Positions 943-43,093 of a DNA stretch of 64,000 bases are shown here, in pieces. The stretch comes from a virus (Duplodnaviria; Heunggongvirae; Uroviricota; Caudoviricetes). Location of the stretch: positions 197,424 to 261,423 of the IMG/VR virus record IMGVR_UViG_3300021166_000052. The stretch is one strand, 5' to 3'. How positions within the stretch are numbered: the stretch's first letter is position 1; each line of letters starts with the position of its first letter. A program made the position numbers and the translations under genes. The notes beneath the pieces were generated by a model. The model did no database searches. It was not told the DNA's origin and saw only the letters and a list, made by a program, of their open reading frames with translations.

Positions 943-2034
943 ATGAGTAAATTAATCATTAATAATCCTAAAAATAACTTTAGTGCAATCATACCACCTA
1001 CAAATAAAGATGGTAGTTATAATGGTTATTCGCGTGGGAGCATGTGGATAAATATATTAACAGGGGTATGTTATTTATGTGTTAATGATATTTTAAATGG
1101 AGCTATTTAGAATCCACTAAGCACTGCTGATATTTCAGCGTTACTACAACGTTTAGATAATTTATCAATAGATTCTACTAATTTCGATTATAGACTTGAT
1201 ATTTTAGAAAATGATTCAACTGAATATGATAATAGATTAAATATTGTAGAAAGTTATGAAAATAGGATAACTATTTTAGAAGATGATTATACTACAACTG
1301 AAAATGATATTACGAGTTTATTTAATGTGATTGAATTAGATGAAAGTATAATTTCCAATCACGATGTGCGTATTATTAGTATAGAAAATTATGATACCAC
1401 TAATACTTCACATTTAAATATATTAACACAAAATATAACGGATTTACAGGATCGGTTATTAACAGACGAAACTAATTTAAAATTAGTTAATTTATTGGAT
1501 GTAGATTTATCAACTGTCCCTATTGATAGTCAAGTATTGAAATATGATTCGACTAATAATATATAGAAAGCTGGTGAAGCTGTTAATGCAGTAGCTGGGC
1601 TGGTTGATGTAGATTTATCTATACCTGCTTTAAATGATCAAGTACTAAAATATAATTCTATTAGCGATAAATAGTCACCACAAAATGTCATGAAGAGTGG
1701 ATCTATAACATTTAATATTACAAATGATATTACTATATTAATGAATAGTGTTAGATAGTATCCATTGGAAGAAATTTAGTTAACATCTGTTCAATGTTTG
1801 GTCAGTTCTCCTCCATTAGGAAATAATATAATTTTAGATATAAAAAGGAATAACGTTTCTATATTAGAGGGAAGGATATTAACAATTACACAATCAAATA
1901 ATATTGGTAATATATTATTATTCGATAATATTAATGTATTATCAACTGATTATATTACGGTCGAAATTAAACAAATAGGATCATCAATGCCGGGAAGTGA
2001 CTTATCGGTTAGATTAAAATATAATTTATATTAA
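943..2034 (+). CDS. tail-fibre-like repeat protein (TAG-recoded, 5 in-frame TAG)
   Basis: Single frame (start mod 3 = 1) runs continuously from ATG 943 to TAA 2032-2034. It is interrupted only by TAG at 1108, 1564, 1672, 1756 and 1777. Two copies of a DxDLSxxxxDxQxLKYxS(TAG)K repeat shared with gene 23604-24131. ORF-track fragments 1327..1566 and 1798..2034 are pieces of it. Confidence 0.6.
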
Positions 2035-2045
2035 AGGGAAAATAA

Positions 2046-4085
2046 ATGTCAGTAACACTTAATACAATAGGAGCCAACTCAAGACAATTAGTAATTACAG
2101 AGGAAGTTGGCCCTACAAATATAATTACCGCAATAAATACATCATTAACTGATCTGGGATAGACGCTGCATGACACTATAGTATCAGGTTCAAAGAATTG
2201 TTATACTTGTAAAGTATATGTTGCTCCAAATAATGATACAGCAACAGGTGGACCAACTTATAAATATTTAATATTAAGATTTGATGCACCTAAACAACAG
2301 TAGTATACTAGTTGTTCTGAAAATTAGAATAATACAACCCACGTAGCAACTAATGAATGTTTTACCAATGGTAGATCAATCCCATTACCATTACAGTATG
2401 ATAATTGTACATTATATATTTTTGCATCTAATAGATATGCTGCATTTTTAGGTAATGTTAATTCTGAATAGAGTGCATAGCAAGGTGTATTTGAATTTGA
2501 ACGGGAAGCCCCTGAAGATACCGCAACACTAGGATATCCGTGTTTTGGATGGACAACCTCTTTAAATATAGGCGAACCATAGGCAGGATCATTAGCAGCC
2601 GCAACTTCTACATATGGTCCTCTTCCATATGTTTTTTCTGTTCCAAGAACACGGACAGGGAATACTGGATTTGCCGCTATAACCGAATTTACAATACATA
2701 CTGCATTTGGAATGTATCCACCTAATAATAGTATATTTACATTATATGGTGTAACAGGTGGATTAACTGCTGTTGATAATAGTCATAATGGGCATTTAGG
2801 CGCATTTAATCATGGATATCGTTAGGATGGTGGTAAAAAAATAGCAAGTTCATTAAAATTGGGAGGATTTTCTATAGCATATCCAACCGGTAGAATATAT
2901 GGATTGACTGTAATTCCACCAACTGGGGCTGTATTAGATACAGTTGTTATTCCTTATGATGTTGATAAAAACTTTTTTAGTACAGATGGAACAAATGTCA
3001 ACACATTCATTTTACCAATCTCTGGTGGTTATTCAGACACTCCCTCAGTTGTTGCAAATGGATTAATTTCAACCGCATTTATTGGCGGTCCAGCTTATAC
3101 GGTTAATAAAGTAGAATTGATTAAAGGTAGAGTTGCATACATGGCAACATCTGGTGGTATTGTAAAACTTGATCTTGGTACTGGTGTATATACTACATTA
3201 AGTACCGCATCACTTCCTATTCAAGATGTTAAATATGATGGAGGATTGTATTTATATTTCTCTACAGCATCTGGTGTAACAAGACTGACAGTTGCTGATG
3301 ATACTTTAACTACGTTAGCATGTGGGACTGGTGGAACCTCCGCATTAGAAGTAGATGATGATTTTGTTTATGCATCACATAGAACTACTAGCACAACACC
3401 TAAGTTGGATATTATTAATAATACGACGTTTACAGTAGCTAGAACCTATACATCTACATATACAATGGCTATTGCACAGTCATAGAATGCATTATGTACT
3501 GCTGATTATGATGGATATGTATATGCGGCTATGCCAATATCAGCTAGTTCAAATATCAATGATTTACGATTGTTTAAAATATTAGGATCAGATGGATCAT
3601 CAACCAATACATTACCTACACAACGAACAGTGTCAAGTACTGGCGGTTTTATGTTTTAGGATGGGTCATTAATAATTTTATGTTATTCAGCGGCAGCAGT
3701 ATCAATTAATGGAATATTACCGACTACACTAGCCGATGGTATAGTTCCTGTCAATTTTGCAGCTACATCACCTTATACTAGAACCGGTTATTTAAATTGT
3801 GTATATCCATTTAAAGGTTATTATATTATACCAATACCAACTGCAACAAAGGTTGCATCTTTTTATAATAGATTAAATCAGCTCAACACAACTGCATTTG
3901 CTACATTTGGGGCAACGAATAATTATATGACAATTTCAACTATTGGGATACCTACGGCAGGAGCTACTGATTGTTGTTCTATGATAGTGGGAGGGGCATG
4001 TAATTCATTTTATAAAATAAGCAACACCCATAATATTTATAATAATGCAGGACAGCCTACATCAAATATATTAATACCCGCATAA
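2046..4085 (+). CDS. large virion/tail structural protein (TAG-recoded, 9 in-frame TAG)
   Basis: Codon-by-codon check of frame 0 from ATG 2046 to TAA 4083-4085. The only interruptions are TAG at 2160, 2301, 2325, 2469, 2478, 2580, 2823, 3483 and 3657. Gly/Thr/Ser/Asn-rich like receptor-binding proteins. Only one TGG in 680 codons. Confidence 0.6.
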
Positions 4086-4089
4086 ACTA

Positions 4090-4560
4090 ATGGCAGAATA
4101 GACCCCCGATTTTACACCGGAAACGTTTTTTAATCACAACTATGCCTATGAATATCCAATTATGTTGGGTACATAGGCAAGTTGCGAGTTTCAAAGACAA
4201 TTGAATTTTACTATTATGCGTTTTTTTATACAATCCCAGATTATATTTAAACAAGATGTGTATAAATATCCTAACGTGATTGGTATGTGGAACAATACAA
4301 AATTTATACCAACAAATGCTTATAAGTATCCAAATTTAAAAGGATTATATACAACGTTGATATTCAATGTAAATCGGTCATTTACATAGTTGAATATAAT
4401 TAAATATGGATTAGCTATAAATTCATATACGTAGGAAATAACTCCCCCAAATGATAATTATTCTAAATGTTTAGCAACCGACTAGAGAGTTTAGAAACAA
4501 ATGTCAACTACCAACCAAACACAAACGATAACAAAATCATCGAATCAATATTAGGCATAA
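4090..4560 (+). CDS. hypothetical small protein (TAG-recoded, 7 in-frame TAG)
   Basis: ATG 4090 lies just after the upstream TAA. A single frame runs to TAA 4558-4560 with 7 TAG. Contains ORF-track fragment 4201..4389. Confidence 0.4.
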
Positions 4561-4583
4561 TAAAAATATATTGACATATACTT

Positions 4584-4626
4584 AAAAAGTGTTATATTAA
4601 CAGTATAACACTTTTTATATTTTATC
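4584..4626 (+). terminator. intrinsic terminator hairpin (13-bp stem aaaaagtgttata/tataacacttttt) followed by T-rich tract
   Basis: Perfect inverted repeat with a 7-nt loop and a downstream U-run, at the end of the late module. Confidence 0.5.
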
Positions 4627-4634
4627 ATATTTAC

Positions 4635-4663
4635 TTGCATTAAATTACTCGATAGTATATAAT
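4635..4663 (+). promoter_or_regulatory. sigma70-like promoter TTGCAT-17-TATAAT
   Basis: -35 at 4635-4640 and perfect -10 at 4658-4663 with a 17-nt spacer. Sits about 50 nt upstream of gene 4713, which has a GGAG RBS. Confidence 0.45.
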
Positions 4664-4712
4664 GACTCTTTAGTATAGAAAAGTATTATTTTAAAAACCG
4701 GAGCATATAATC

Positions 4713-5198
4713 ATGAAAACCGAAGATAAATTTTTATTACATTTACTTGAAACCGCTATACGCATTGCTGTAACTGCTCATGCTGGGGTAATGGATAAAG
4801 CGGGTGTACCGTATATATTACACCCTCTCCGTATCATGGGTGGAGCCAAGGCACTTAAAGAGAAAATAGTTGGTGTTCTTCATGATACCATCGAAGATAC
4901 TGATGAAAACAGTTTATTAAATGTAACATTTGAATATCTTAGGGAAGAAGGGTTTCCTGATGATATCATTGAGGCGCTTGATTCCGTTACCCATCGTAAA
5001 GGTGAACCTTATGCAGATTATATACAACGTGCAAAGAAAAATATAATCGGTAGAAAGGTGAAAATACTTGACTTACGTGATAATTCTGATATATTCAGAT
5101 TACATTCGGTTGAGGAAAAGCATCTTAAACAAATGAAACGATATCATGCCGCAATGCTTGAATTGCGAAAGGATGGTAAAGTTTACATAACGAGGTGA
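4713..5198 (+). CDS. small alarmone hydrolase, RelA/SpoT-type HD domain ((p)ppGpp hydrolase)
   Basis: HD-domain motifs H...HD (LHDTIEDT) typical of SpoT/Mesh1 hydrolases. 161 aa, so a single-domain protein. Confidence 0.6.
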   Translation: MKTEDKFLLHLLETAIRIAVTAHAGVMDKAGVPYILHPLRIMGGAKALKEKIVGVLHDTIEDTDENSLLNVTFEYLREEGFPDDIIEALDSVTHRKGEPYADYIQRAKKNIIGRKVKILDLRDNSDIFRLHSVEEKHLKQMKRYHAAMLELRKDGKVYITR

Positions 5199-5199
5199 C

Positions 5200-5385
5200 A
5201 TGGAAATAGCAGATATTAAAATAAATAACAGTTATAGAGTAGTCTGTGGGTTTGATGAACGTTTTATGAACGATACAGTTGTTACTGTTATGGAAATCAG
5301 AGAAAGTGATTTACCATTCGTTTATTGTTACGGCTCACGGGGTGGATCAGCTTATATTAACATAAATAATTTAAAAAAAAAATAA
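5200..5385 (+). CDS. hypothetical small protein
   Basis: 61-aa ORF immediately after gene 4713. Confidence 0.3.
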   Translation: MEIADIKINNSYRVVCGFDERFMNDTVVTVMEIRESDLPFVYCYGSRGGSAYININNLKKK

Positions 5386-5464
5386 AATTGTAATTAACAC
5401 AATTTAGTGTTATACAAAATAAAAAGTCAACGATAATCAATAACTAATTGATGGAGACTAAACA

Positions 5465-5899
5465 ATGGAAGGATTGCGATACGTTTATTTTGGTGATGTA
5501 ATTGGAAAGCCTGATCATAAGGGCGTAGCTACAATCGGATATGCATATGATCCGGTTGATAAAAAAATGAAATATTCAGTTGCCTTCTGTAATCAGAAGG
5601 ATCGGTTTTTGAAATCCGAAGCACATAAACGCATCATTGCTCGGATGGAAGGTGGTGCAGTGTTTGTTGCGGGGTTTGATATTATTGATGATGTTGCCCC
5701 AAAGTATGAAGATACTATTAAGGACATCATTGACCAGTTTCAGGATTGCTTGACCCGGCCCATCATGGTTAAAGTGAAGGATAAGAAAACCCGTAAATAT
5801 CTCAGAAAACCAAACGGTGACTTTGTGATGGAAAAGGCGTATTTCTTTTGTAAGATTCGTGTTCCAAGCTGGGCCAAAAATATTATTAAACCGCGCTGA
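5465..5899 (+). CDS. hypothetical protein
   Basis: 144-aa ORF. The antisense ORF 5576..5929 is judged spurious. Confidence 0.45.
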   Translation: MEGLRYVYFGDVIGKPDHKGVATIGYAYDPVDKKMKYSVAFCNQKDRFLKSEAHKRIIARMEGGAVFVAGFDIIDDVAPKYEDTIKDIIDQFQDCLTRPIMVKVKDKKTRKYLRKPNGDFVMEKAYFFCKIRVPSWAKNIIKPR

Positions 5900-5955
5900 T
5901 AATATTTTTTTAACTTGTAAAATATCCACTGATGTGCTATTAAGTTAGTATATCG

Positions 5956-6918
5956 GTGGATATTTTTTTATATAGAGGACAAACTATTATGAATAATAAA
6001 TATAATGTTATAATTAGGGATGTTGGTGTATGTGGAATGAGGATTCAGATCGATGATCTTCACGATGCTCATATTGAACTAATTAACATAATGTTGGAAA
6101 CTCATAAACGGCTTATTATTGTACTAGGGGTGCGGCCTATTATATTTACTGCAAAAAATGCATTAACATTTCAAATGAGAAAACAGGCATTTTTTGAAGT
6201 GTTTGGAAATTATAAACATCGTATTACTTTATTATATATAAACGATGTAAGAGATGATCACATATGGTCAAATAATTTTGATAATCTTATCAAAAACAAT
6301 ATTAAGGAAAACGAAACTGTTAGATGTTGCGGAGGGAGGGATTCATTTTTAAATTATTATCATAATAATATTTATGAAAAATGGGTCATTACTGATTTTA
6401 CTCAGTCAGAATTCATTTCTGCAACTGCTAAACGGAATGAGATTGCTAAAACTACAATATTTGATTCTTCATTTAGGCGGGGTGTTATTTATTCCGCATT
6501 AAATTTACCGGGACAATGTGTGCCTTCAATTGATGTAGCAATATATGATCATTATGGTAATATATTAATGGGGCAACGGGTCGATGAATTATCATATCGT
6601 TTTATTGGGGGATGGGTTCAACCGAGAGAAACGTTTGAAATGGCGTGTAATCGAATTGTAAAAACCAAATGTGGAATCGCTATTGATAATTTACAACCAA
6701 TACGTAGTTTTTGTAATTTTGATTGGAAATTTAAAGGTGAACGAGATGATTTGACAACCATGTTATATACTGCATATATAACAGAAGGTACACCTGAACC
6801 ACTGGGAAATCTTAAATATCTACGATGGGTTTCGATTGTTGATATACTGAATGTGGTCGATTCAGAACATTTGGAATTGGCAAAATCTATTTACGAGTTA
6901 CATAATGCATCAAACTAA
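5956..6918 (+). CDS. NMN adenylyltransferase-like / Nudix-fold bifunctional protein (NatV/NadM-like)
   Basis: N-terminal cytidylyltransferase-like segment (G.R.Q....HDAH). C-terminal Nudix-like box GGWVQPRETFEMACNRIV, which is degenerate. Size and architecture match phage NatV, and it sits adjacent to Nampt. Confidence 0.5.
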   Translation: MDIFLYRGQTIMNNKYNVIIRDVGVCGMRIQIDDLHDAHIELINIMLETHKRLIIVLGVRPIIFTAKNALTFQMRKQAFFEVFGNYKHRITLLYINDVRDDHIWSNNFDNLIKNNIKENETVRCCGGRDSFLNYYHNNIYEKWVITDFTQSEFISATAKRNEIAKTTIFDSSFRRGVIYSALNLPGQCVPSIDVAIYDHYGNILMGQRVDELSYRFIGGWVQPRETFEMACNRIVKTKCGIAIDNLQPIRSFCNFDWKFKGERDDLTTMLYTAYITEGTPEPLGNLKYLRWVSIVDILNVVDSEHLELAKSIYELHNASN

Positions 6919-7159
6919 ATTAGGATCATTAATAGAGTCATCCACTAACGTAATCATAGGATATTTTATTGGTGTATTAACACAAATGTTATTATTTCCA
7001 TATTTCGGATTACATGTAACAATTGGCCAAAACATGTTGTTGTGTTTTTTATTTACAACAGTTAGTTTAATTCGAAATTATATAATCAGAAGATGGTTTA
7101 ATAATAGGTTGCATTTGTTTTCAGAAAAGATTAATATGATGGTACATGAAGTAAAATAA
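6905..7159 (+). CDS. small membrane protein (two predicted TM helices)
   Basis: In-frame ATG 6905 overlaps the end of the previous gene. Hydrophobic helices VIIGYFIGVLTQMLLFPYF and LLCFLFTTVSLI. Confidence 0.35.
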   Translation: MHQTKLGSLIESSTNVIIGYFIGVLTQMLLFPYFGLHVTIGQNMLLCFLFTTVSLIRNYIIRRWFNNRLHLFSEKINMMVHEVK

Positions 7160-7184
7160 ACCTTAGATAAAAAAATTAAACAAG

Positions 7185-8624
7185 GTGAATACAATGGAAC
7201 AAGATATGAGAAGTTTGGTAGAAGAATTTAATGTTATGACTGCAACCGATAGCTATAAACTCGGACGCGACCGCATGTTCTCTGAAGGGACCGAAAGTGT
7301 ATCCTCTTATTTTGAAGCTAGAGATGGTGCAAAATTTCAATATAATGTATTTTGTACACTCCAATATTTGTGTATGAAATATCTCTGTGGTAAGCAAGTC
7401 ACGAAAGCTAAAATCGATTGGGCTGAATATCTTTCTGAACTTCACCTCGGTCAGAAGGGCGCATTTGATCGATCCGGTTGGGATTACATCCTTCAAAAAT
7501 ACGATGGCCGGTTGCCTATTGAAATCTGTGCAGTTGCCGAAGGAACCCCTGTTCCAACTGGTAATGTTATGATGCAGATCAGAAATACCGATCCCAAAGT
7601 ACCAGTGTTATCAAATGCGATTGAGTCGATGATTACCCATGTTTGGGCAGGAACTACCGGAGCAAGTTTATCAAGGTATATCAAACAGATGCAAAAACGA
7701 TTTCTTGATATTTGTTGCGATACCCCCGATGAAGTTCTTCCTTTTATGCTGCATGATTTTGGTTATCGAGGGTCGTCAAGCCATGAATCTGCCAGACAAG
7801 TAGGCGCTGGTCACTTGCTCAATTTTTTAGGAACTGATACAGTACCAGCGATGGAATTGCTCATTCAATATTATGGAGCGTCTATTGATAGAGCGACTTT
7901 CAATGCAGGGTTTTCTATTTTTGCAACAGAACATCTTATCATGACTCAAAAAGGTGAAGCTGGTGAATTTGATGTAGTTGAAGAATTGTTGAATAAATAT
8001 CCCACTGGCAACCTTGCGATGGTAATTGATAGTTATAACTGGAAACGTTTTATTGAAACCATGGGAACACCTCGTTTCAAAGACCGTATATTGAACCGGG
8101 ATGGTAAGATTATTTTTCGGCCAGATTCAGGAAAGCCAGTTCCCACATCATTTGGTGTATGGAAAGGGCTTGCTAATATTTTTGGGTATGATACAAATAA
8201 TAAACGATATGATGTATTGAATCCAAAGGTTAGTACAATTTGGGGCGATGGTATTGATGAAGTCGAAGGTGAATCCATCTACCAAAACTTTATTGATAAT
8301 AAAATCTCGATTGAAAACTGTCCACTTGGTATGGGTGGCAATCTACATCAGAAAATCAATCGTGATACACAAAGGAACGCCTTTAAAGGTTCGTTTGTTC
8401 AACGTAATGGTGTTGGTTATGATATCTTTAAAGACCCCATTGATGGTAGTAAAAAATCTAAAAAGGGTAGGCTTGCTTTGATTAAAGATGCGGCGGGTAA
8501 TTTCCAAACCCTTCAGGGTGTGACCGGTCCAGTTGAGGGTGATCTTCTAATCCCAGTATTCCGTAATGGTGAGATGTTGAAAACATATACCCTTAATGAA
8601 ATGAGAGCAAACGCTGCATTATAA
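7185..8624 (+). CDS. nadV: nicotinamide phosphoribosyltransferase (Nampt / NadV)
   Basis: 479 aa. N-terminal TDSYK motif and overall Nampt-like length and composition. No in-frame TAG and six TGG Trp codons. Confidence 0.75.
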   Translation: MNTMEQDMRSLVEEFNVMTATDSYKLGRDRMFSEGTESVSSYFEARDGAKFQYNVFCTLQYLCMKYLCGKQVTKAKIDWAEYLSELHLGQKGAFDRSGWDYILQKYDGRLPIEICAVAEGTPVPTGNVMMQIRNTDPKVPVLSNAIESMITHVWAGTTGASLSRYIKQMQKRFLDICCDTPDEVLPFMLHDFGYRGSSSHESARQVGAGHLLNFLGTDTVPAMELLIQYYGASIDRATFNAGFSIFATEHLIMTQKGEAGEFDVVEELLNKYPTGNLAMVIDSYNWKRFIETMGTPRFKDRILNRDGKIIFRPDSGKPVPTSFGVWKGLANIFGYDTNNKRYDVLNPKVSTIWGDGIDEVEGESIYQNFIDNKISIENCPLGMGGNLHQKINRDTQRNAFKGSFVQRNGVGYDIFKDPIDGSKKSKKGRLALIKDAAGNFQTLQGVTGPVEGDLLIPVFRNGEMLKTYTLNEMRANAAL

Positions 8625-8627
8625 TTG

Positions 8628-8686
8628 TTGACATATTGTTAATTATTAGGTATAGTCTGGGTTATTAAATTAGCTCAGACTATACC
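8628..8686 (+). promoter_or_regulatory. promoter TTGACA-17-TATAGT overlapped by an 11-bp inverted repeat (ggtatagtctg...cagactatacc)
   Basis: -35 at 8628-8633, -10 at 8651-8656. Inverted-repeat arms at 8649-8659 and 8676-8686 bracket the -10 and +1 region. Followed by an AAGGAG RBS and ATG 8708. Confidence 0.4.
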
Positions 8687-8707
8687 TATTTTAAAGGAGA
8701 TAAATAA

Positions 8708-9067
8708 ATGTTAATTAGATCAGTTGCTATTGTTTTAGGCGATAATGATTTTGGCCAGACATTTCATAATTTATTAGAAACTATTTTACGTGTTATCGTG
8801 AATGATCCTATTATTAGTGAATATAGTATAGAAAAAATTATTAAAGAGGGCCTACGCTTTCACTACATTGCTTTTCAAAATAAATATGATCCATATTATG
8901 GGAATGGAGTGGATTCATTTAAAAAACATTTTGATCATATTGAAAATTATTTATCATCAATTCGCATTTATTTTAATGATGATGCCGAGCGAGAGTTTGA
9001 AAACGGGGATCATGATGGCGGAGCATGGATTTTATGTATACAAGATGGTTCGATTACATCATTTTAA
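8708..9067 (+). CDS. hypothetical protein
   Basis: 119-aa ORF with a strong RBS. Confidence 0.45.
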   Translation: MLIRSVAIVLGDNDFGQTFHNLLETILRVIVNDPIISEYSIEKIIKEGLRFHYIAFQNKYDPYYGNGVDSFKKHFDHIENYLSSIRIYFNDDAEREFENGDHDGGAWILCIQDGSITSF

Positions 9068-9092
9068 TGAAATAATAATGAAAGTGTGAAAA

Positions 9093-9614
9093 ATGATTAC
9101 ATTAGCAACAACATGTGGTATCTTTATTATAAATAAATTCAAACAAATACTTACATGTCATCCAACGGGTCATCATCCATTGCAATTGGATATACCAAAA
9201 GGATGTTTAGATCGAGGAGAAACTGTGTCTCAATGTGTTGTTAGAGAACTGTTAGAAGAAACTGGGATTGATTATTATACATTACAGCGGCCATTAATAG
9301 ATATTAGTGCGATACATGGGACATTTATATATAAGCATAAGAAAAAACAATTATATACATTTATGTTACAACTAAATGACACAATAGATGTAACTACCTT
9401 GAAATGTACAAGTATGGTTACGAGTGTACCCATTCCATTTCCAGAAGTAGATTCTTTTGCATGGATAGAATATAACGAAAGAGAGTTGCTACATGAATCT
9501 CAGCAACGTGCCATAGAAGTAATTAATGATCAATATAATATATTTGATTTACATTCATCCAAAGATGAAAATACTCAATATATAACAATTTCTAAAAGTA
9601 ATAATTATGGTTAA
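9093..9614 (+). CDS. Nudix hydrolase
   Basis: Canonical Nudix box GCLDRGETVSQCVVRELLEETGI (G-x5-E-x7-REUxEExGU). Confidence 0.7.
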   Translation: MITLATTCGIFIINKFKQILTCHPTGHHPLQLDIPKGCLDRGETVSQCVVRELLEETGIDYYTLQRPLIDISAIHGTFIYKHKKKQLYTFMLQLNDTIDVTTLKCTSMVTSVPIPFPEVDSFAWIEYNERELLHESQQRAIEVINDQYNIFDLHSSKDENTQYITISKSNNYG

Positions 9615-9642
9615 ATAAAAAATAATAATATTTCAAATATAT

Positions 9643-9676
9643 AGCCAGCACTTAATAGTGCTGGCTATTTTTTTTG
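9643..9676 (+). terminator. rho-independent terminator (agccagcac / gtgctggct stem plus T9)
   Basis: 9-bp GC-containing stem, 6-nt loop and a T-run directly after the Nudix gene. Confidence 0.6.
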
Positions 9677-9714: not shown

Positions 9715-11343
9715 ATGTTAAGATATCAGCCTAAATATAATGTTAATGTAGATTCAACTGGATCTGGGGATTCTACAACAATAAATTTAATAAACGCGGG
9801 TAATGTTTAGGTAACAAATATTACATCTGGGGGTATTGTTTCTTCTAAAACATATATTCCCAATACTGTCCCTGCTAATTATATTTTAACTGCTGCTACA
9901 ACAGATCATCAAACTGTAACAATATTTTTTATTGCAGAACCTACAACATTATAGTCTCCAACTATTACAGTAGATGGAATAACGTGTACTAATTTAACAC
10001 AATATGCAGATGATAGACGATTATTTTCAGGGTCTGTTACAATAACAGTCGCATCATCAAAAACGGTTACACTAACTTCGAATACAGGGAAAAGTACAAC
10101 TGTTCAAGTCAATCGAGCCGCAATGGCCCCAACTATAACCGATATCAGATTTATTAATGGATATCCGGGTACTCAAACCGAAGTTAAACAAAATGATACA
10201 TTGACAGTTCGTGTAACATTTGATCCAGCAGGAACTGCCCCCACCCAAATAGATGTTATGGATTATGGTATATCACAATCTAAGACAGTTTTAACATCTT
10301 CAACTGAATTATCATAGGGAACAGTTCACACCGCCACATTTACAATATCCACAAAATATGTAGGCAACACTGCCCAATTATTACCTATACAATTACGAGC
10401 AAGAAATTTATTTGGTACTGCTAGTAATTATATAATTTCCAATGTATATGGTACTACGGAAACTATACAGGTAATGAAAGGATGTGATTTAGTTCCTACT
10501 ATTACTGTTAATGCCACTACATACCCATCGGGGCAGGGAGCTTTTAAAAATACAGAATCTGGTAACATAAATGTTACTATTTCTAATTATACAGGTGTTA
10601 CATATTCTTCTCCAAATGGAAATTTTACAATTACATCTCCAACTATATATGCTGCGTCAAAAACTATAACTTGTACTCATCCCGGAACATATAATGATTC
10701 TGTAAATAATATTAGAGTTGTAGCTACTCGTTCTGCAAATGCAACTTCTACAACAGCAAATTTCATAGTAGAAGTTGCAGATATTGCGCCTACTGTGAAT
10801 GTATATCATTCTGAATCATATTTAAGATCTACTGAAGCCGGTTACACTTATACTATATATGCTACTAGTAATCAAAATCTATTATCAGCCCCATCTTTTA
10901 ATATACCAGTTTCTGGTATATAGGTTGCTGGTGCATTTACTGGTTCTAATAAAAATTAGCAGCGAACAATATCTATTAGGGATAGTGATATAAAAGGAAC
11001 GGCTCCATAGAGTGCTACTATATTACCAACTAATAAAGCTAAAATTGATGCAATAATTACTGGAAACCAAATTGTTAGGGGATTTAGATCGAGAATTTTA
11101 CCATTACCTGCTTTTGGAACCAGTTGTACGTTAGGGACCGCTGTAACAAGTATTGCAAATTTAGTATTTTCATAGAGTTTTAAAACAGCTATGGCATATT
11201 CCCCAATTGGATCAGTTGCACCAATTGTAGGTGGATAGACTATTAGTGCATTAAATAATAATCCAACAACTATTTATATTTTAGATTCTCAGGCGGCGGC
11301 TGCTTCATCAGCGGCCAGCACAATAACTATAGAGGAAACATGA
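9715..11343 (+). CDS. virion/tail structural protein (TAG-recoded, ~9 in-frame TAG)
   Basis: Single frame from ATG 9715 to TGA 11341-11343. ORF-track pieces 10123..10317 and 10474..10923 are in the same frame. Thr/Ser/Asn-rich. No TGG seen in the long fragments. Confidence 0.55.
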
Positions 11344-11400
11344 TTAATATAAATAGTAAATATAATTAATTTAATAATATATTTAATGGGTTTGTAATAA

Positions 11401-12021
11401 ATGCCAACTACCGCCGAATTAGCATTCGAACTAGAACGCCGGATCATTGTTTTCCATAACGCAACATCTTTACCAGATGATACTCAATTAGGTTATATAG
11501 GTGATCCTAATAATGTTGTTAATGGTGCAACTGCTGGTCAAACTTTATTATATAATTGTCCATCTGGAACATTTTTTTTAGATAAATCACAAAATCCACA
11601 TGATATTTATCAAAAAGTACAAGATGGAGCCGGTGGATTATAGATTAAACATAATAGTTCAACTACTACAACCGGGACAATTGAATTTACTGATACAACA
11701 GTATTAGCATCTACTGATATCGGAGGAGGTAGAGTTGTAATAGTTTTTAATAATAGTGCAACATATGCGGATAACACAACTAATTATTTTGGCCAAATGG
11801 GAATTACATTAAATGCAGCATCAATTGGTGCAAGTTTAAAAGTTAGATTAGCTGGTATTATTGATGATGTAAGTTTTAATTTTATAAATGGTCCGTTATA
11901 TTTAAGTAATAATGGATTAATTACACAAGTAGAACCGATAACCAATGCTAGTGTAGTATTAGGTTATCCAAAAGATAACAAATCATTTTTATTTGATCCT
12001 CAGACAATTATAGAAAGGTAA
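11401..12021 (+). CDS. structural protein (1 in-frame TAG at 11641)
   Basis: Fragments 11401..11643 and 11797..12021 share a frame and are joined by one TAG. Ends in TAA. Confidence 0.5.
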
Positions 12022-12026
12022 ATTAT

Positions 12027-12533
12027 ATGGCTGATAAATATTTAAAGAACAATGGCGCTTCTTATAAAGAAGTAGGATTTTTAGTAACAAGTACTGGTGC
12101 AAGTGATGCTGGTAAAGGTGTTGGGTTGAATGCACAGGGCCGTCTGGACGAATCTTTGATGCCCGTGGGTCTTGGTGCGGATACTAAACAAATCGTGGCT
12201 GGCGAGGCTCTGGGTGCTGGTAATTACGTTAATGTTTATAGTGACTCAACAGTTTTTAAAGTCCGTAAAGCGGATGGAACTATTGAAGGAAAATTTGTCG
12301 ATGGCTTTGTATTGGCAGCATTTGCAGCCGATGATTTAGCAACTGTATACTTTGAAGGAACTAATAATCAATTAACCGGACAAGTTGCAGGGGATGTATT
12401 TTTAGCAACAACCGCAGGTGCTGGTACATCTACACCACCTAGCGCATCTGGAAATGTTGTTCAGCGAGTAGGTGTTGCAATTAGTCCAACTGAAGTTAAT
12501 TTTGAACGCGGAATGCCTACTGTATTAGCATAA
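12027..12533 (+). CDS. structural protein, Gly/Ala-rich
   Basis: Complete 168-aa ORF. No TAG and no TGG. Confidence 0.5.
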   Translation: MADKYLKNNGASYKEVGFLVTSTGASDAGKGVGLNAQGRLDESLMPVGLGADTKQIVAGEALGAGNYVNVYSDSTVFKVRKADGTIEGKFVDGFVLAAFAADDLATVYFEGTNNQLTGQVAGDVFLATTAGAGTSTPPSASGNVVQRVGVAISPTEVNFERGMPTVLA

Positions 12534-12559
12534 TCTTTGTTTTTTTGGTTTAAAAAATA

Positions 12560-13285
12560 ATGGCACGTAAACGACCACTAGCAATATACAATGGTATACT
12601 TAGAGAAATTAACAAAGGAGATACACTACCGCCTGATGTTTTAACGGATACTATCTCTTTTGGTAATGGGGTTGAAATAGTACTATCACAACACGGTGAT
12701 AGTACTTCAACCACCTTCACTCTATCTCGTCCTGTTGAGAAAGTATTAGTTGCTGTTAATGGTTTATTACAAACAAATTATATTCAACCAAATGGAACAG
12801 ATCAATTAGTATTAGGATTTACACCTGCATCCGATGATTTAATTATTGCATATTGTTTTGGCGAAACTACCACAACAGGAATAGCAACACTTAATCGCGT
12901 TTTGGATACAACTACTGATGGAACTACTAGTAATTATACATTAGATACCACTGCATATAATGTGATGGTTTTTTTAGATGGTATATTACAATATGATTTT
13001 GTTCATGGAAACGATTCTGATTATTTATATTTAGGATTTGTGCCAATAGCTGATAAAAAATTACAAGTATATTCTGTAGTTGGTGGTATAAAAGGACCAA
13101 AGGGTGATAAAGGTGAACCCGGTGAAGCGGCGGATCACGGCTTATTAACAGGACTTGGTGATGATGATCATCCCCAATATTTAAATGAAAGCCGTGCTGA
13201 TGAAATTTATATCAGATTAGATAATACTGATATTGGAGTAGACACTAGTTATCATCATATTCAATCAATATCATTGGATACGTAG
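12560..13285 (+). CDS. tail fibre protein with short collagen-like Gly-X-Y segment
   Basis: GPKGDKGEPGE triplet repeat. An upstream domain repeated in gene 14985..15926. Ends at TAG 13283-13285. Reading through would run about 150 nt further to TGA, so the end is uncertain. Confidence 0.5.
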   Translation: MARKRPLAIYNGILREINKGDTLPPDVLTDTISFGNGVEIVLSQHGDSTSTTFTLSRPVEKVLVAVNGLLQTNYIQPNGTDQLVLGFTPASDDLIIAYCFGETTTTGIATLNRVLDTTTDGTTSNYTLDTTAYNVMVFLDGILQYDFVHGNDSDYLYLGFVPIADKKLQVYSVVGGIKGPKGDKGEPGEAADHGLLTGLGDDDHPQYLNESRADEIYIRLDNTDIGVDTSYHHIQSISLDT

Positions 13286-13437
13286 TATATTGAACATAAT
13301 TTAAATAAATATCCTTCCGTAGTTATAATTGATTCATCTATGGATAAGGAAGAAGTATATGGAACAATAAAACATATAGACTTAAATAGACTTAATGTCT
13401 ATTTCTCATCAAACTTTACTGGAGAGGCATACTTATC

Positions 13438-14967
13438 ATGAAATTTTTAAATAATATTAATCTAACATTAAATGAAATCCAAAATGTAAAATTACATAAT
13501 CTAGGATCGGCACCTACTGGTTATGAAGGTTTAATTTACTACGATACCGCATTAAAACGTACCGGCGTTTATATGAATAGCACCTAGAAGTATTTTGTAA
13601 CATATGATTTACTAGGTGCTGCTTCTGGTGTTGCAACCCTGAATGCAAGTTCATTAGTGGTTCAAAATCCAGCAAGTGCTGCTTCTACATCAGGCGGAGC
13701 CGCTGGAGTTATCCCAATTACCCCCGCTGGTGGTAGATTAGACGGTTCATTTATTCCGCTATTAAATAATATACCAGCACCAACTGGGGCGGTATCGTTA
13801 AATTCACAAGCTATTACTAATTTAGCTAATCCTACCAATCCTCAAGACGCTGCTACTAAAAATTATGTAGATTCTGCTGTACAGGGACTTGATACTAAAG
13901 CATCTGTTCGTGTTGCAACTACGGGTGCTATTACTTTAACAAATACTCAAACAGTTGATGGTGTTTCATTAATTGTAGGTGATAGAGTATTAGTAAAAGA
14001 TCAAGGAACAGCTTCTGCTAATGGTATTTATATAGTATCTGCTACAGCATAGACAAGAGCTACTGATGCTGATTCGTGGAATGAATTAGTTGCAGCATAT
14101 GTGTTTATTGAAGAAGGTACAACTTATGCAGACACTGGTTAGGTTTGTACCGTTGATGCTGGTGGTACACTTGGAACAACTGATGTAACATTTGCTCAGT
14201 TTTCTGCCGCCGGTACTGTAACTGCTGCCAATGTAGGGGCAGGAACTGGTACTATCTTTAGAGATAAAACAGGAAATGTAATCAATTTAAAATCTATTGC
14301 CGCTGGTTCTACTAAATTAAGTATTACTAATAATGCAGATAATATTACATTGGATGTTAATGAAGCAAACTTAGTATTTGCTAATATGACATCTTCTGGA
14401 ACATTAGCTGTTGCAAAAGGTGGTACTGGAACTACTACTTCAACTGGTACTGGTTCTGTTGTATTATCAAATTCACCTGCATTAGTTACGCCAACTTTAG
14501 GAGTAGCAACTGCTACATCTATAAATAAGGTAACTATTACTGCTCCAACATCAGGAGCTACATTAACTATTGCAGACGGTGCAACATTATCTACTGCTGG
14601 ATCATATACTTTAATGTTAACTGCTACTGGAGCAACAAATGTAACTTTTCCGACATCTGGTACATTGTTAAGCACAGCAGCAGCAGTAACAGTTGCACAG
14701 GGTGGTACAGGTTCAACTACAGCGGCTGGAGCTAAAACTAATTTAGGTTTTATGACTCGTTATTCTGCTGACATTGGTAATGGTTCATTGACTACTATTC
14801 CAGTTGTACATGGTTTGAGTACATTAGATGTTCAAATTACGGTATATGAAAAAGCTGGAAATTCTGTAGTGTATCCTGATATTATGTTAACTGATGCTAA
14901 TACTGCTTCAATTGTATTCTCAGTAGCTCCAACTGTAAATCAATATAGAGTAGTTGTAATAGGATAA
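13438..14967 (+). CDS. tail fibre protein (conserved phage tail-fibre N-terminal domain; 3 in-frame TAG)
   Basis: The segment VRVATTGAITLTNTQTVDGVSLIVGDRVLVKDQGTASANGIYIVSATA(TAG)TRATDADSW...ADTG(TAG)VCTVDAGGTLGTT..FAQFS matches a widespread phage tail-fibre domain. An AKGGTG...TNLG motif lies downstream. Frame is continuous through fragments 13657..14052 and 14350..14967. Confidence 0.65.
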
Positions 14968-14984
14968 TTAAAGGAGATTGACTA

Positions 14985-15926
14985 ATGCCTAAAATATTGG
15001 GACAGACGGAAGTAGTTGGTAGTTTAACGGCTACTTCCGTCAATGGTATTACTGGTTTAAATTCCAACGATGGTACAATTCAACCAAATGGTAGTGTAGC
15101 AGACGCTGGTATATCTAATTATGCAGCAAGGGCAGATCATGTTCATGTTGGTGGTATCGGTGGCGGTGCGTCTTATTTAAATGATTTACTTGATGTCAAC
15201 ATTAGTTCTGTTGCAGATGGAAATGTATTATTATATGATTCAGATACTACCAATTAGGTTAATGTGGTATCAAATATAGAAAGTATCGAAACTGTTTTAG
15301 ATACTACAGGAAATGGAACTACTACATTTACTTTATCTAAAGCGGTTGGTAAAGTATTAACTACAATAGATGGTATAGTTCAAAGAGATTTTACACAACC
15401 AAATGGTACAAATCAGTTAGTTTTTGGTTTTATACCAGATACAACAGAAAATGTTACAGCATATAGTTTTAATAATATATCAGTAGGCGGTGGTGGAGGA
15501 GCTAGTACATTAGATGAACTAACTAATGTTAATGCTCCATCTCCAACTGAAGACCAAATATTATCATAGGATTCTACGAGCGGCCAGTAGATTGCAAAAA
15601 CATTAGTTATTGGTGATGACACATCTGGTATAGTTTTATCAGAAATTGGAACTGCTACTATAAATTTCGGTGATTAGCCCGGTCAAAATGAAGCCACAAT
15701 TATATTAGATACATTAACTAATATAACATCTACTGCTAAAATTACAGCATAGATAACCGCTGATTCTACATCGGAAGATCATTCAGAGAGTGACCACCGA
15801 TATTTAGCATTATTTACAAAATTAGTTTGTACATCTCCGATTGCTGGTGTTGGATTTACTATATATTGTATATCAGAACATAAATTAGAAGGACATTTTA
15901 CTATCAATTAGGCATAGACTGATTAA
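14985..15926 (+). CDS. tail-fibre-like protein (7 in-frame TAG)
   Basis: Frame 0 is continuous from ATG 14985 through TAG 15255, 15567, 15588, 15675, 15750, 15909 and 15915 to TAA 15924-15926. Shares a domain with 12560..13285. Confidence 0.5.
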
Positions 15927-15939
15927 GAGGAGATGAAAC

Positions 15940-16707
15940 TTGCCACCATATAAAACATATATTAGAGAGTAGGATTGTAAGCCACCATCACATATACCAA
16001 TTAGAACAGATAATCATTAGTCTACACAAGGATTAGTTTATTGTAATATGTTTAATGAATCGTTAATGGAAAGTATTTCTGGGGTTGTTGGTGATCCAAC
16101 TGGTAATATAATAACACCAGATGGTGTAAGATTTACTGAAGATACTGATAGATTGGTATATCCACCACATATAAAACCTATGCAACTAAATCAAACTAGC
16201 ACTGTTATTGTAACTACTAAATTTGATGTTAAAAAATAGACACCAAATATGAAGTTATTAGCTGTTGATGGTAATGACATTACATTTTATAATTTAGGAA
16301 AATATATTTATTTGGATTTTTATTATGCTGGCAACGCTTCTGTTATTGCTTATAATGATAGTTATAATAAGTAGACGCAATGGATTTCTATACGGGCCGC
16401 TACTTATAAAAGTATATATATAAATTGTGAAATGGCAACGCAAGTAATGGATATGAATGGTGGGTATATTAATTCAACATCTAGTATGACATTTGGTAAT
16501 AGTGTTATAGATGATAGTAATCCATTTAAAGGTACTATTGGATATATGTTAGTTTATAATAGAACTCTTACTGAAAGAGAAATGACACTATTATAGCAAA
16601 ATCCATATCAAATGTACGAACCCGAAGTATTGTATATTGACCAAGAAAGACCATATAATTATCAAATCACTAAAACAAACCGAAGTAAAATATTTAATTT
16701 AAGTTAA
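15940..16707 (+). CDS. LamG/concanavalin-like jelly-roll protein (paralog 1; TTG start; 5 in-frame TAG)
   Basis: AAGAGGAG RBS 7 nt upstream of TTG 15940. C-terminal FKGTIGYMLVYNRTLTEREMTLL resembles the LamG fold. N-terminus parallels gene 17114 (YKxYIxE(TAG)DxKPP...H(TAG)S). Confidence 0.4.
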
Positions 16708-16718
16708 AGGGAATAAAA

Positions 16719-17114
16719 ATGGCATAGTCTAATAAAACGACCCTCACTGGAGTTGGGGCCGAATTAAGTGAGATCACAAATATTGATGCTAATTATGTAG
16801 ATGTTAATCATTATACTGAGTGGGTAACATTAAACCCCGGTGAAATTGCAGATTTAGAAATTAATGTGGTTTTTGGTGCAGGTGGAACCGATGTTTGGTA
16901 CAGAGTTGTGAAAACATTAGATGAAACTTCTGAAGCTCCACAAAATATACCATATATAGCAGGAGTATTTGCATATTCATCTAGTGGCAATTATAAAAAA
17001 TCAGTAGTAATATCTAATTGTTATAAATTTAGAATCGAATTTAGAAAAGGTGGAACCACTGCTGGTACATATACACCTTATGTATATATGAGAAAGAATG
17101 GTGTGTCTGTGTAA
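16719..17114 (+). CDS. small structural protein (1 in-frame TAG)
   Basis: ATG 16719. Fragment 16866..17114 is in the same frame. Stop TAA overlaps the next ATG (gtgTAATGg). Confidence 0.4.
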
Positions 17115-17914
17115 TGGCGGCATATAAACAATATATTAAAGAATAGGATACTAAACCTCCATCTGGTACAAAATTAAGAACCGATGGCCATTAGTCTGTT
17201 AAAAATCTAGTATATTGTAATACATTTAATGATTCATTTACAGAAAGTGTCAACGGAATAATTGGTACACCTTATGGTAATATATTAACACCAGATGGTG
17301 TTTGTTTTACAAATGATACTGATAAATTAGTATATCCAGCTAATACATTTAAAATGTTAGGTTCACTAATTGGCCCCTATACAATTTTATTTTCGTTTAG
17401 ACCACCAGATATATATCAAACAGAAGCAAATTCATATATTATTGGCAACGGATCACAAGAAATAGCTTTATTTTAGGTAGGCCCATCTACATTTAATATG
17501 GATTTTACAATGGGACTATCATCATTAAATCAATTAAATACGGCTCTACATTACGACCAATAGCAACACTGGCAATTAATACGTACATTACAGGGAACAA
17601 TATCATTTTTAAATGGTGTTATGATAGAAGCATCAGACGAACCGGAGTATGGTGATATAATAACTACAAATCCATAGATTTTTGGTAATAATAGCACAGA
17701 TACAGGGGTATTTAAAGGAACAATCGGGTATTTTTATATTTATAACACTGATTTTGTTAATTATCATACCCCGACATAGGAACTAGATTCTTTATAGAAA
17801 AATCCATACCAGATGTTTGAATCAGAAGTATTATATATTGATCAAGAAAAACCAAAAATGTATAATATAACTGAAACTAATAGATCACAAAATTCGATGT
17901 TAATTGGTTAGTAA
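17114..17914 (+). CDS. LamG/concanavalin-like jelly-roll protein (paralog 2; ~8 in-frame TAG)
   Basis: Read by eye in frame 2 from ATG 17114 to TAG-TAA at 17909-17914. N-terminal 60 aa are about 60% identical to gene 15940. C-terminal FKGTIGYFYIYN motif. Confidence 0.4.
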
Positions 17915-17957
17915 TGTTAATAAAATAAATTAATTATTAAATATAAGGTTTTGAAAA

Positions 17958-18275
17958 ATGATTCCAAAAATAGAAGATAGAGATTATAAATATCAAGGTA
18001 ACAATATTTGTAGTATTTTTGCTACTTTAAATATATATGCTGATGACAACACAACTATCGTAGATAGTGTAAAGTTACAAGCAAATTTTGATATATCTGA
18101 TGTAGATAATGTTGTTGCGTTTGCAACCGAACAATTATCATCACAAGTAATGGATTATATGTCAAAATTAGTTTATATTGATAATTTAAGAAAACAGATA
18201 TTTCCAACGTCAATAGACTTTAAAGACGCAATTAATTCTATATTAGATCCAATTCAAGCATCACTTGTTGGATAA
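17958..18275 (+). CDS. hypothetical protein
   Basis: Complete 105-aa ORF. Confidence 0.45.
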   Translation: MIPKIEDRDYKYQGNNICSIFATLNIYADDNTTIVDSVKLQANFDISDVDNVVAFATEQLSSQVMDYMSKLVYIDNLRKQIFPTSIDFKDAINSILDPIQASLVG

Positions 18276-18309
18276 TATAATAAAATAAGAAATAAATAGG
18301 AGATCAAAC

Positions 18310-19776: not shown

Positions 19777-19795
19777 TATTGTGGTATATTGATAT

Positions 19796-20278
19796 ATGAA
19801 ACAAAAAATAAGTAAATCTATAATTAGAGACTTATCTGAAGCAGCATCGGTTGTACTTATAAATGATAGTACAACCGATGCTGCTTGGTATCCTATAGTA
19901 GCATCAATATCATCTGGTACTGTATCTAATATATATACAAGTTCTACTAAATTAACATTTAATCCCGCAACTGGAAATTTTAGTGCAACTCAATTTACGT
20001 CATTATCAGATAAAAAATTAAAAGAAAATATACAACCAATAGAAGATGCGCTTTATATAATAAATCAGTTAGAAGGTGTAGAATTTGATTGGAAAGATTC
20101 TAAAAATCATAGTTCTGGTTTAATAGCACAGGATGTAGAAAATATACTACCATTTTTAGTTGTTGAAACAGAAAATAAATCTATAAATTATAATGGTATT
20201 ATAGGATATTTAGTAAATGCTATCAATGAGTTACATCAAGAAGTTAATATATTAAAACAAAAACTAGAAGATAAATAA
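19796..20278 (+). CDS. short tail fibre/spike with C-terminal intramolecular chaperone autoprotease (peptidase S74) domain
   Basis: LSDKKLKENIQPIEDAL...LEGVEFDWKD...GLIAQDVENILPFLV is the classic S74 / endosialidase-chaperone signature. Confidence 0.7.
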   Translation: MKQKISKSIIRDLSEAASVVLINDSTTDAAWYPIVASISSGTVSNIYTSSTKLTFNPATGNFSATQFTSLSDKKLKENIQPIEDALYIINQLEGVEFDWKDSKNHSSGLIAQDVENILPFLVVETENKSINYNGIIGYLVNAINELHQEVNILKQKLEDK

Positions 20279-20280
20279 AG

Positions 20281-20844: not shown

Positions 20845-20896
20845 ATATATTTCTTGATATATATAGTTTTTATACTATACCATATGGAGATAATTA

Positions 20897-23574: not shown

Positions 23575-23603
23575 TTATATATAATTTTAATTAGGATGGT
23601 AGT

Positions 23604-24131: not shown

Positions 24132-24343
24132 TGATTATAATTACAAAACATACACCAACCCCCGGAAAAGTTCCAACAAGTACAGATTTAGTTGTTGGTG
24201 AATTGGCAGTAAATACGAACGATAAAAAATTATTCACTAAACATACTGATAATAATATTATAGAGATTGGAGGTGGTTCCGGTGGAACTTCTGGTACATT
24301 TCCAGAAGTAGATTTATTACGAATGGCACTAGGAATAATTTAA
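24131..24343 (+). CDS. hypothetical small structural protein
   Basis: 70-aa ORF in an overlapping TAATG junction. Confidence 0.4.
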   Translation: MIIITKHTPTPGKVPTSTDLVVGELAVNTNDKKLFTKHTDNNIIEIGGGSGGTSGTFPEVDLLRMALGII

Positions 24344-24355
24344 TAGGTTAATTAA

Positions 24356-39726: not shown

Positions 39727-39728
39727 TC

Positions 39729-43085: not shown

Positions 43086-43093
43086 TATAATTA

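Follow-up and report, generated by a model that had tools for sequence, protein, structure and literature searches.

The stretch of DNA considered here, which we call the window, comprises 64,000 nucleotides of IMG/VR record IMGVR_UViG_3300021166_000052 (positions 197,424 to 261,423), a virus of the class Caudoviricetes, and its subject is a pair of genes predicted to salvage nicotinamide adenine dinucleotide (NAD), one encoding a nicotinamide phosphoribosyltransferase (Nampt, or NadV) and the other a NadM-type nicotinamide mononucleotide (NMN) adenylyltransferase (NMNAT). We find that the pair fits the NARP2-type salvage pathway, that the Nudix domain fused to the NMNAT has lost its catalytic glutamates, and that both genes lie in an island written in the standard genetic code between genes in which TAG appears to be read as an amino acid. 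The window has a low GC content (~31%), and its plus strand carries nearly all genes. Because no GenBank phage is close to it at the DNA level, the source is taken to be an uncultivated jumbo phage; a megablast search of the NAD block against 50,697 phage records returned zero matches, consistent with a phage that has no close sequenced relative. Comparisons were made with a set of 30 related loci, drawn from IMG/VR, four metagenomic huge phages and the Tunturiibacter phage Tunturi_5, and separately with three nearer relatives, contigs L031, L033 and L036. A sequence-only reading of this DNA had named four open reading frames (ORFs), for an Nampt, an NMNAT-Nudix protein, a second Nudix and a macro domain; all four are present at their coordinates and their domains pass curated or otherwise strong thresholds, but the starts of the NMNAT and Nampt genes had to be moved. 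Three genes carry the argument:

5989-6918, plus strand: NadM-type NMN adenylyltransferase (residues 1-165) with a catalytically degenerate Nudix domain (residues ~178-309), from profile searches, Foldseek and motifs
7185-8624, likely start ATG 7194, plus strand: nicotinamide phosphoribosyltransferase (Nampt/NadV), from Pfam, NCBIfam, Protein Data Bank (PDB) matches and a tree
9093-9614, plus strand: canonical Nudix hydrolase of the T4 NudE type, from Pfam, phrog_1185 and its Nudix box

The product of 7185-8624 matches Pfam NAMPT_N (E=3e-26) and NAPRTase (E=3e-31), scores 450.8 bits with NCBIfam PRK09198 against a cut-off of 405, and aligns end to end with human and mouse NAMPT in the PDB (E=1e-97), in agreement with its earlier assignment as NadV. 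It keeps the equivalents of human Y18, D219 (GTDTV), H247 (HDFGYRG) and R311/D313 (RPDSG), residues whose roles we take to be those known from the NAMPT literature. ATG 7194, with AAGGTG ahead of it, is probably the start, in preference to GTG 7185. A neighbour-joining tree of 28 sequences, among them references for NARP1 (two) and NARP2 (one), places the window Nampt beside the 69%-identical Nampt of L036 among NMNAT-linked Nampts, including that of the KVP40-like nt-1; in it the two Namat sequences that adjoin Prs/Adps genes (NARP1) form a separate branch. The Nampts of L031 and L033 are 34-36% identical to that of the window, though their NadM proteins are its closest (51-52%); likewise, in the comparison with L033 identity is 51-65% for the NadM, HD and Nudix genes on either side and 34% for Nampt. 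Because the Nampt tree conflicts in this way with the relationships of NadM, Nampt must have been replaced in the course of this lineage's history, the pathway itself being left intact. In locus L022 the Nampt gene (7062-9454) is interrupted by ~1 kb between residues 154 and 157, which may be an intron or a homing-endonuclease insertion.

Upstream, ATG 5989 has a ribosome-binding site, AGAGGA, at 5975, GTG 5956 lies inside a 21-bp hairpin, and an independent Joint Genome Institute (JGI) gene call from ATG 5989, on a contig of 276,095 bp, yields the identical 309-aa protein; the predicted start of the NMNAT gene is ATG 5989, not GTG 5956. A single-sequence search with the protein reaches PDB 2qjo at E=0.12. 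The family profile, built from seven members found among 5.8 billion proteins, matches NadM-Nudix structures over both domains (Francisella 2qjt, E=1.2e-21; Synechocystis 2qjo, E=2.2e-15) and also matches archaeal NMNATs. In accordance, an AlphaFold model (predicted local distance difference test score 76) has 2qjo, 2r5w and 2qjt as its best full-length PDB matches in Foldseek. Across 31 family members GRFQ..(H/T)x(G/A)H and S(G/A)TxxR are conserved, with R18, (H/T)x(G/A)H and S-x-T-xx-R invariant or near-invariant; the window protein reads G-M-R-I-Q...H-D-A-H and I-S-A-T-A-K-R, keeping R18, H25-D-A-H28 and IS144-A-T146-xx-R149. Family, fold and motif thus support the prediction that the N-terminal half is an NMNAT. 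Put to profile and structure searches (Pfam, NCBIfam, PDB and Foldseek), the Nampt and NMNAT assignments of the sequence-only reading are upheld, the second through the matches of the family profile to 2qjt and 2qjo and the intact motifs.

The C-terminal half of the same protein matches Pfam NUDIX over the gathering score (ORF 5956-6918, E=1e-5), but it lacks the catalytic box GX5EX7REUXEEXGU even though the Nudix fold is present. Its box reads GWVQPRETFEMACNRIVKTKCGI, that is G-WVQPR-E-TFEMACN-R-I-V-K-T-K-C-G-I, in which I, T and K replace the three glutamates of REUxEE. The four closest relatives (P0002-P0005; 51-58% identical) share the loss, with RTAKEK, RAAREK, RAAKQK and NAVLNK, so that the box is degenerate in all five clade members, whereas xE..EE is retained in nearly all more distant relatives. 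Given the replaced glutamates, the protein is probably monofunctional. Of the NatV-like bifunctional enzyme proposed before, the NMNAT half stands on profile and fold and the Nudix activity is unlikely; the box had been called degenerate, which is correct but understates the loss of three catalytic residues. Within the clade the mean identity of the fused Nudix domain is 49%, as compared with 57% for the NMNAT domain, and for this reason the domain does not appear to be decaying; it is probably kept for a non-catalytic role.

A second, free-standing Nudix gene lies two genes downstream of Nampt. Its product matches Pfam NUDIX (E=6e-12) and phrog_1185 (E=4e-18) and has a perfect Nudix box, GCLDRGETVSQCVVRELLEETGI, which bears out the earlier call of a canonical Nudix hydrolase. 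BLASTP similarity to T4 NudE is weak (26% identity over 127 aa, E=3e-7), and a Bragavirus Nudix is 37% identical (E=2e-19). L033 has a homologue (55%) immediately downstream of Nampt, and L036 has one (39%) three genes downstream of it. In 27 more distant loci no stand-alone Nudix was found near the pair by a regex box scan together with a homologue search, the scan being of low sensitivity to NadM-type boxes with insertions and applied to stand-alone Nudix genes only. In this lineage, then, a dead fused Nudix co-occurs with a live free-standing one, which suggests that the hydrolase role was transferred from the former to the latter.

The linkage of the two salvage genes is conserved. The NadM gene directly abuts Nampt in 27 of the 30 related loci, the exceptions being one contig end and two NMNAT-only proteins, and the same arrangement, in the same order, is found in L031 and L033. 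In a published survey every phage with NadM has NadV (PMC9503650), and the report by Osterman et al. (10.1101/2024.02.11.579819) gives Nmnat as encoded by 94% of phages with a KVP40-type Nampt. The window has an Nampt with its catalytic residues, an NMNAT in the same phage and an Nampt that falls in the Nmnat-associated clade, and clade and adjacency together fit the published definition and statistics of NARP2. The NARP2-type salvage pair of the sequence-only reading is thus sustained by domains, adjacency and clade placement. As a predicted distant member of a known pathway, the pair adds one member and changes little.

The pair belongs to a standard-code island of 5.1 kb (4571-9668), which lies exactly between two TAG-recoded genes and needs no recoding. 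Its genes are, in order, an alarmone hydrolase, two small ORFs, NadM, DUF7220, Nampt, orf8708 and the Nudix gene, and its further features are as follows:

4571-4617, plus strand: composite promoter/stem-loop opening the island, TTGACA-16-TATATT with a TG extension, hairpin 4583-4617 overlapping the -10
4713-5198, plus strand: HD-domain small alarmone hydrolase, (p)ppApp-hydrolase-like (PDB 7smg, E=2.5e-34 over the full length; phrog_990, E=2e-48)
5465-5899, plus strand: conserved hypothetical protein, 144 aa, also found ahead of the NMNAT gene in L031 and L033
5896-5966, plus strand: intrinsic terminator hairpin 5919-5966, then T7, overlapped by a weak promoter-like CTGATA-16-TAAAAT, at the boundary between the HD and salvage units
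6905-7159, plus strand: DUF7220 protein, 84 aa, hydrophobic (Pfam, E=5e-27; phrog_4276, E=4e-23)
8628-8700, plus strand: composite terminator/promoter, PeSL-like, -35 TTGACA at 8628, -10 TATAGT at 8651-8656, hairpin 8647-8688
8708-9067, plus strand: conserved hypothetical protein orf8708, 119 aa, between Nampt and the stand-alone Nudix
9641-9668, plus strand: intrinsic terminator closing the island, 12-bp stem with 6 GC pairs, then T8 (z=-6.5)

The opening element begins 11 nt 3' of the TAG-recoded ORF 4090-4560, scores 11/12 in the promoter scan and has a perfect 14-nt inverted repeat (fold z=-5.4); the closing terminator is followed by the TAG-recoded ORF 9715-11343. Between them, the 5919-5966 terminator has a 21-nt inverted repeat (dG -28.3, z=-9.2), and the 8628 element combines TTGACA-17-TATAGT (11/12) with an inverted repeat of 18-nt arms (dG -27.6 kcal/mol, z=-7.4 vs shuffles), its -10 lying within the 5' arm of the hairpin 8647-8688, and is followed by a Shine-Dalgarno (SD) sequence, AAGGAG, and ATG 8708. 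The PeSL cassettes of T4-type phages consist of a sigma-70 promoter with a stem-loop between -35 and -10 or over the -10, an SD sequence and a start codon (PMC2839356), and this geometry is found at 8628-8710 and 4571-4617, with a weaker version at 5896-5988. Since the PeSL-like design recurs at the unit boundaries of the island, the 8628 element would stop read-through from Nampt and start the orf8708-Nudix unit. The sequence-only reading had taken 8628-8686 for an unusual promoter-operator by which the salvage block is separately regulated; the sequence feature is real, but an operator is unnecessary to explain it, and what it would drive is orf8708 and the Nudix gene. The three junctions share little sequence beyond TTGACATAT, and their neighbour genes are mosaic between relatives; the match to PeSL is one of design. 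In a search of the window with Rfam, two tRNAs were the only matches, and no riboswitch or other known RNA was found in the island.

In the 30 more distant loci no homologue was found of the alarmone hydrolase, DUF7220, orf8708, the stand-alone Nudix or the macro domain. The hydrolase, first gene of the island, is syntenic in L033 (65% identity) and has no part in NAD salvage; standing beside NAD genes, it is a candidate counter to alarmone-synthetase toxins. The 5465-5899 protein is without a Pfam or PHROG match and is found by tblastn at the same relative position in L031 and L033 (36-38% identity, E=1e-15 to 1e-29). The DUF7220 gene separates NMNAT from Nampt and shares 14 nt with the end of the NMNAT gene, stop codon included; its product has no homologue in any related locus at E<=1, and it appears to be specific to this genome and outside the conserved cassette. 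orf8708 has 10 homologues; L036 carries it at the corresponding position, and L033 lacks it. As a candidate NAD-linked gene it was rejected, its wider family occurring in unrelated contexts.

The genes on either side of the island differ from it in code. The region from 9.7 to 12 kb seemed poor in ORFs, its fragments lying in one reading frame broken by TAG only. Read with TAG as sense, 943-4560, 9715-26121 and 51015-51752 hold tightly tiled genes that all end in TAA or TGA, and at least 16 plus-strand genes have 1-9 in-frame TAG codons; these genes resemble virion or tail-fibre genes and a C1 peptidase. TAG aligns with W at six of the seven assessed sites and with Y at the seventh, and the pattern of code 15, in which TAG is glutamine, is not what is seen. 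The C1 peptidase has four TAG sites, opposite which its closest solved homologue has Y, W, W and W, the NSWG motif included; at the three TAG columns of the fibre protein 13438-14967, W is the residue in 101 of 113, 114 of 119 and 90 of 120 homologues. TGG makes up 0.34% of codons in the recoded genes vs 1.09% elsewhere, and TAG 1.45%. Q occurs at the fibre TAG columns only in the closest relatives, and in P0018 (locus L044, SRR23971560), the sole relative checked at the DNA level, those Q are TAG codons; TAG thus stands at Trp-conserved sites in L044, which the public protein collection translates as Gln. Taken together, the alignments indicate that the late or structural genes would read TAG as tryptophan. 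We found no report of TAG read as Trp in phages, the literature found giving only TAG to Gln and TGA to Trp. No suppressor tRNA was found in the 64-kb window, its only tRNAs being tRNA-Leu(UAG) and tRNA-Ser(GCU). The former is a long-arm tRNA-Leu (781-866; its UAG anticodon reads CUA and is not that of a suppressor) directly 5' of the first TAG-recoded block, a position that may be coincidental. T4-type late promoters (TATAAATA) are not enriched upstream of the recoded genes, with 16 found vs 13 expected.

How might these genes work together? From homology, fold, motif conservation, gene adjacency, clade placement and the boundaries of the island we infer enzyme activities, expression timing, a counter-defence role and a division of labour between the two Nudix proteins, along the following lines. 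Nampt (7194-8624) would condense nicotinamide with phosphoribosyl pyrophosphate (PRPP) to NMN, and the N-terminal HIGH-superfamily nucleotidyltransferase domain of the NadM-like protein would adenylylate NMN with ATP to NAD+. NAD+ would thereby be refilled, nicotinamide freed by TIR, SIR2 or similar effectors re-used, and phage replication could proceed. The fused Nudix, its metal-binding glutamates lost, would be retained as a non-catalytic structural or ligand-binding module, and pyrophosphatase activity on ADP-ribose or dinucleotides, if there is any, would come from the T4 NudE-type Nudix two genes downstream. The island, with sigma-70-like promoter/terminator composites among TAG-recoded structural genes, would be expressed early by the unmodified host machinery: in the model of Borges et al. 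(10.1101/2021.08.26.457843) it is the late genes that are recoded, the early ones being readable in the standard code, from which it follows that the salvage genes could be read from the first moment of infection. To this explanation, a NARP2-type pathway for counter-defence, with the NudE-type Nudix supplying hydrolysis and an early standard-code island, we give a probability of roughly 0.78. A more specific version, on odds somewhat better than even, would have the island as an early-readable counter-defence module of a jumbo-phage lineage that reads TAG as Trp in its late structural genes, its dead NadM Nudix perhaps turned into a regulatory module that binds ADP-ribose, for which the non-catalytic Nudix domain of NrtR is the analogue, while the NudE-type enzyme hydrolyses.

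Several observations weigh against this explanation. The N-terminal NMNAT domain has no Pfam match (CTP_transf_like is silent), the NCBIfam NadM/NMNAT models reach E=5e-11 and 42 bits with the single sequence vs cut-offs of ~200, and the first motif is atypical, GMRIQ...HDAH vs GRFQ...HxGH. For the proposed division of labour between the Nudix proteins the sample is three genomes that are related and not independent, and L031 has a degenerate fused box and no nearby Nudix. In the promoter scan no convincing sigma-70 site was found directly upstream of the NMNAT gene (best 9/12), and a strong terminator precedes that gene; early reading of the island fits its code compatibility and promoter consensus, solely from which it is deduced. 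Finally, in the report by Osterman et al. (10.1101/2024.02.11.579819) a NARP2 knock-in raises NAD+ without any defence system, as in earlier reports on KVP40.

The alternative that survives best concerns the downstream gene. The stand-alone Nudix may be functionally apart from NAD salvage, engaged for example in NAD or polyphosphate decapping of RNA or in clearance of diadenosine polyphosphates (ApnA) or flavin adenine dinucleotide (FAD), and owe its place beside the pair only to the mosaic make-up of the early region. It is served by a promoter and terminator of its own, RppH-type RNA pyrophosphohydrolases are its best, though weak, PDB sequence matches (E ~1e-3), the more distant loci have no such gene near the pair, and the T4 record annotates NudE for FAD, ApnA, ADP-ribose and NADH. 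Yet it stays within 0-3 genes 3' of Nampt in three related genomes despite the exchange of Nampt, and its occurrence coincides with the clade in which the fused Nudix is dead. We regard this separate role as a serious contender, somewhat short of an even chance.

Is the salvage pair directed at host defence, or does it serve the metabolism of a large genome? By analogy, counteracting NAD+-depleting systems is its most likely role. According to the accessible part of Osterman et al. (10.1101/2024.02.11.579819), NARP2 experimentally restores NAD+ and overcomes NAD+-depleting systems, co-expressed systems of this kind are inhibited by it, and a NARP2 knock-in phage partly overcame type I Thoeris; the list of defences in the abstract that contains SEFIR refers to NARP1. 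Thus, where the sequence-only reading had the genes neutralise Thoeris-, DSR- and SEFIR-like defences, as far as that source goes type I Thoeris holds for NARP2 and the SEFIR list does not carry over. That the pair is instead an auxiliary metabolic module, raising NAD+ for large-genome replication and not dedicated to anti-defence, would agree with the rise of NAD+ in defence-free knock-in cells, with the occurrence of NadV in ~33% of jumbo phages (PMC9503650) and with other metabolic genes in the window, such as a fusion of dephospho-CoA kinase and phosphopantetheine adenylyltransferase. The demonstrated action of NARP2 on NAD+-depleting defence speaks against it, as does the island shared with the alarmone hydrolase, a candidate metabolite-level counter-defence gene. 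We hold this purely metabolic function to be rather unlikely, bearing in mind that the two roles can coexist and are not mutually exclusive.

The 5989-6918 protein could also have ceased to be an NMNAT, having turned into a pseudoenzyme or taken on a different nucleotide substrate; Nampt would then depend on host NadD/NadR for the final step to NAD+. The silent Pfam model and the low NCBIfam score lean that way, as do the change of GRFQ to MRIQ and of the motif glycine to alanine. Against it, eukaryotic NMNATs too are without that glycine, and the arginine, both histidines and the S-T-R motif residues are kept and presumably correspond to residues that mutational work has shown to be required for catalysis in archaeal NMNATs. 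Given as well that the NMNAT domain is conserved in the clade at the 57% noted above and that the gene still adjoins Nampt, loss of NMNAT function is quite improbable. A NARP1-type Namat using ADP-ribose pyrophosphate (ADPR-PP) is the least credible alternative of all, for although Namat and Nampt are homologous and annotation pipelines use one name for both, no Prs/Adps-like gene was found among the pair's neighbours in the window ORF list and Pfam, the window protein is 33% identical to the Namat references adjoining Prs vs 37-69% to NMNAT-linked Nampts and branches with the latter, and it aligns end to end with PRPP-using NAMPT.

The macro domain, which the sequence-only reading had counted among the NAD counter-defence genes, lies ~30 kb from the salvage pair. 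The domain itself is there (39262-39726: Pfam Macro, E=4e-6; phrog_335, E=3e-49; DarG-like, E=4e-10, below cut-off), but its membership in the set is not sustained: in the 30 related loci the pair has no macro-domain homologue within 6 kb, and we found no evidence for a link between the two. Its neighbours are an RNase T-like exonuclease directly after it (39262-40256 region) and a Lar-like protein, macro domains occur in ~56% of jumbo phages (PMC9503650), and it may belong to RNA repair or ADP-ribose processing, not to NAD salvage. On the whole, the NARP2-type pair of the earlier interpretation remains, while bifunctionality, the macro link, the operator and the SEFIR attribution have been given up. 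Elsewhere in the window there are two RNA ligases (26237-27322 and 48250-49269), of which one is Rnl1-like and the other an OB-domain member of the RNA_ligase family; a cluster at 41951-45532 combines an Fe-S redox-domain protein with a pair of radical SAM proteins (43142-43966 and 44642-45532). The ORF 51833-52918 was considered as a second NMNAT, the PHROGs label of its family (phrog_3462), and rejected; the label is misleading, the protein being an N-terminal dephospho-CoA kinase fused to a C-terminal phosphopantetheine adenylyltransferase (PDB match to the latter, E=4e-20). A single phage protein here covers the two final steps of CoA synthesis, its domain order being reversed relative to eukaryotic CoA synthase.

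The recoding context is more novel than the salvage pair itself. If true, TAG to Trp extends the known repertoire of phage genetic codes, and the database entries for some "code 15" phage proteomes would be in error at tryptophans that are functionally conserved. As for the pair, a small clade with a dead but conserved NadM Nudix beside a free-standing Nudix offers a natural test of the purpose that the Nudix half serves in NatV-type proteins.

Each layer of the locus has a known counterpart. As in the code 15 phages described by Borges et al. (10.1101/2021.08.26.457843), in-frame TAG is limited to late-looking structural genes and the early-looking ones are in standard code, but TAG is Gln in those phages and aligns with Trp here. 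The PeSL cassettes of T4-type phages (PMC2839356, PMC4122927), like the elements of the island, stand at boundaries of small variable modules whose neighbour genes are inserted or replaced between relatives; those cassettes are a sequence-conserved repeat family of ~100 bp and a substrate for recombination, and in the island several promoters have TTGACATAT in common, with stems unrelated in sequence. T4 NudE (e.1) has in common with 9093-9614 the canonical box, its 'DIPKG' context and a C-terminal 'PExDxFAW', and phrog_1185, to which the window protein belongs, includes Straboviridae Nudix genes; the T4 gene sits by lysozyme or late genes, while that of the window adjoins NAD salvage genes. 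The bacterial NadM-Nudix proteins (Francisella tularensis 2qjt/2r5w; Synechocystis 2qjo) resemble the window protein in two-domain architecture, fold and NMNAT motifs, but they are described as active ADP-ribose pyrophosphatases with REUxEE where the window protein has RIVKTK. A further counterpart is the NARP2 of Vibrio phage KVP40. The window differs from it in that its fused Nudix is without catalytic glutamates and an unrelated, small membrane-like gene (DUF7220) is inserted between the pair; the Nampt of the KVP40-like nt-1 is only ~37% identical, and tblastn with the window NMNAT protein finds only five phage records, none of them Vibrio. As in KVP40, where NARP2 consists of NadV and NatV according to Osterman et al. 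(10.1101/2024.02.11.579819), a large phage encodes both an Nampt and an NMNAT, the Nampt belonging to the NMNAT-linked clade and the NMNAT being of the NadM type with a C-terminal Nudix fold.

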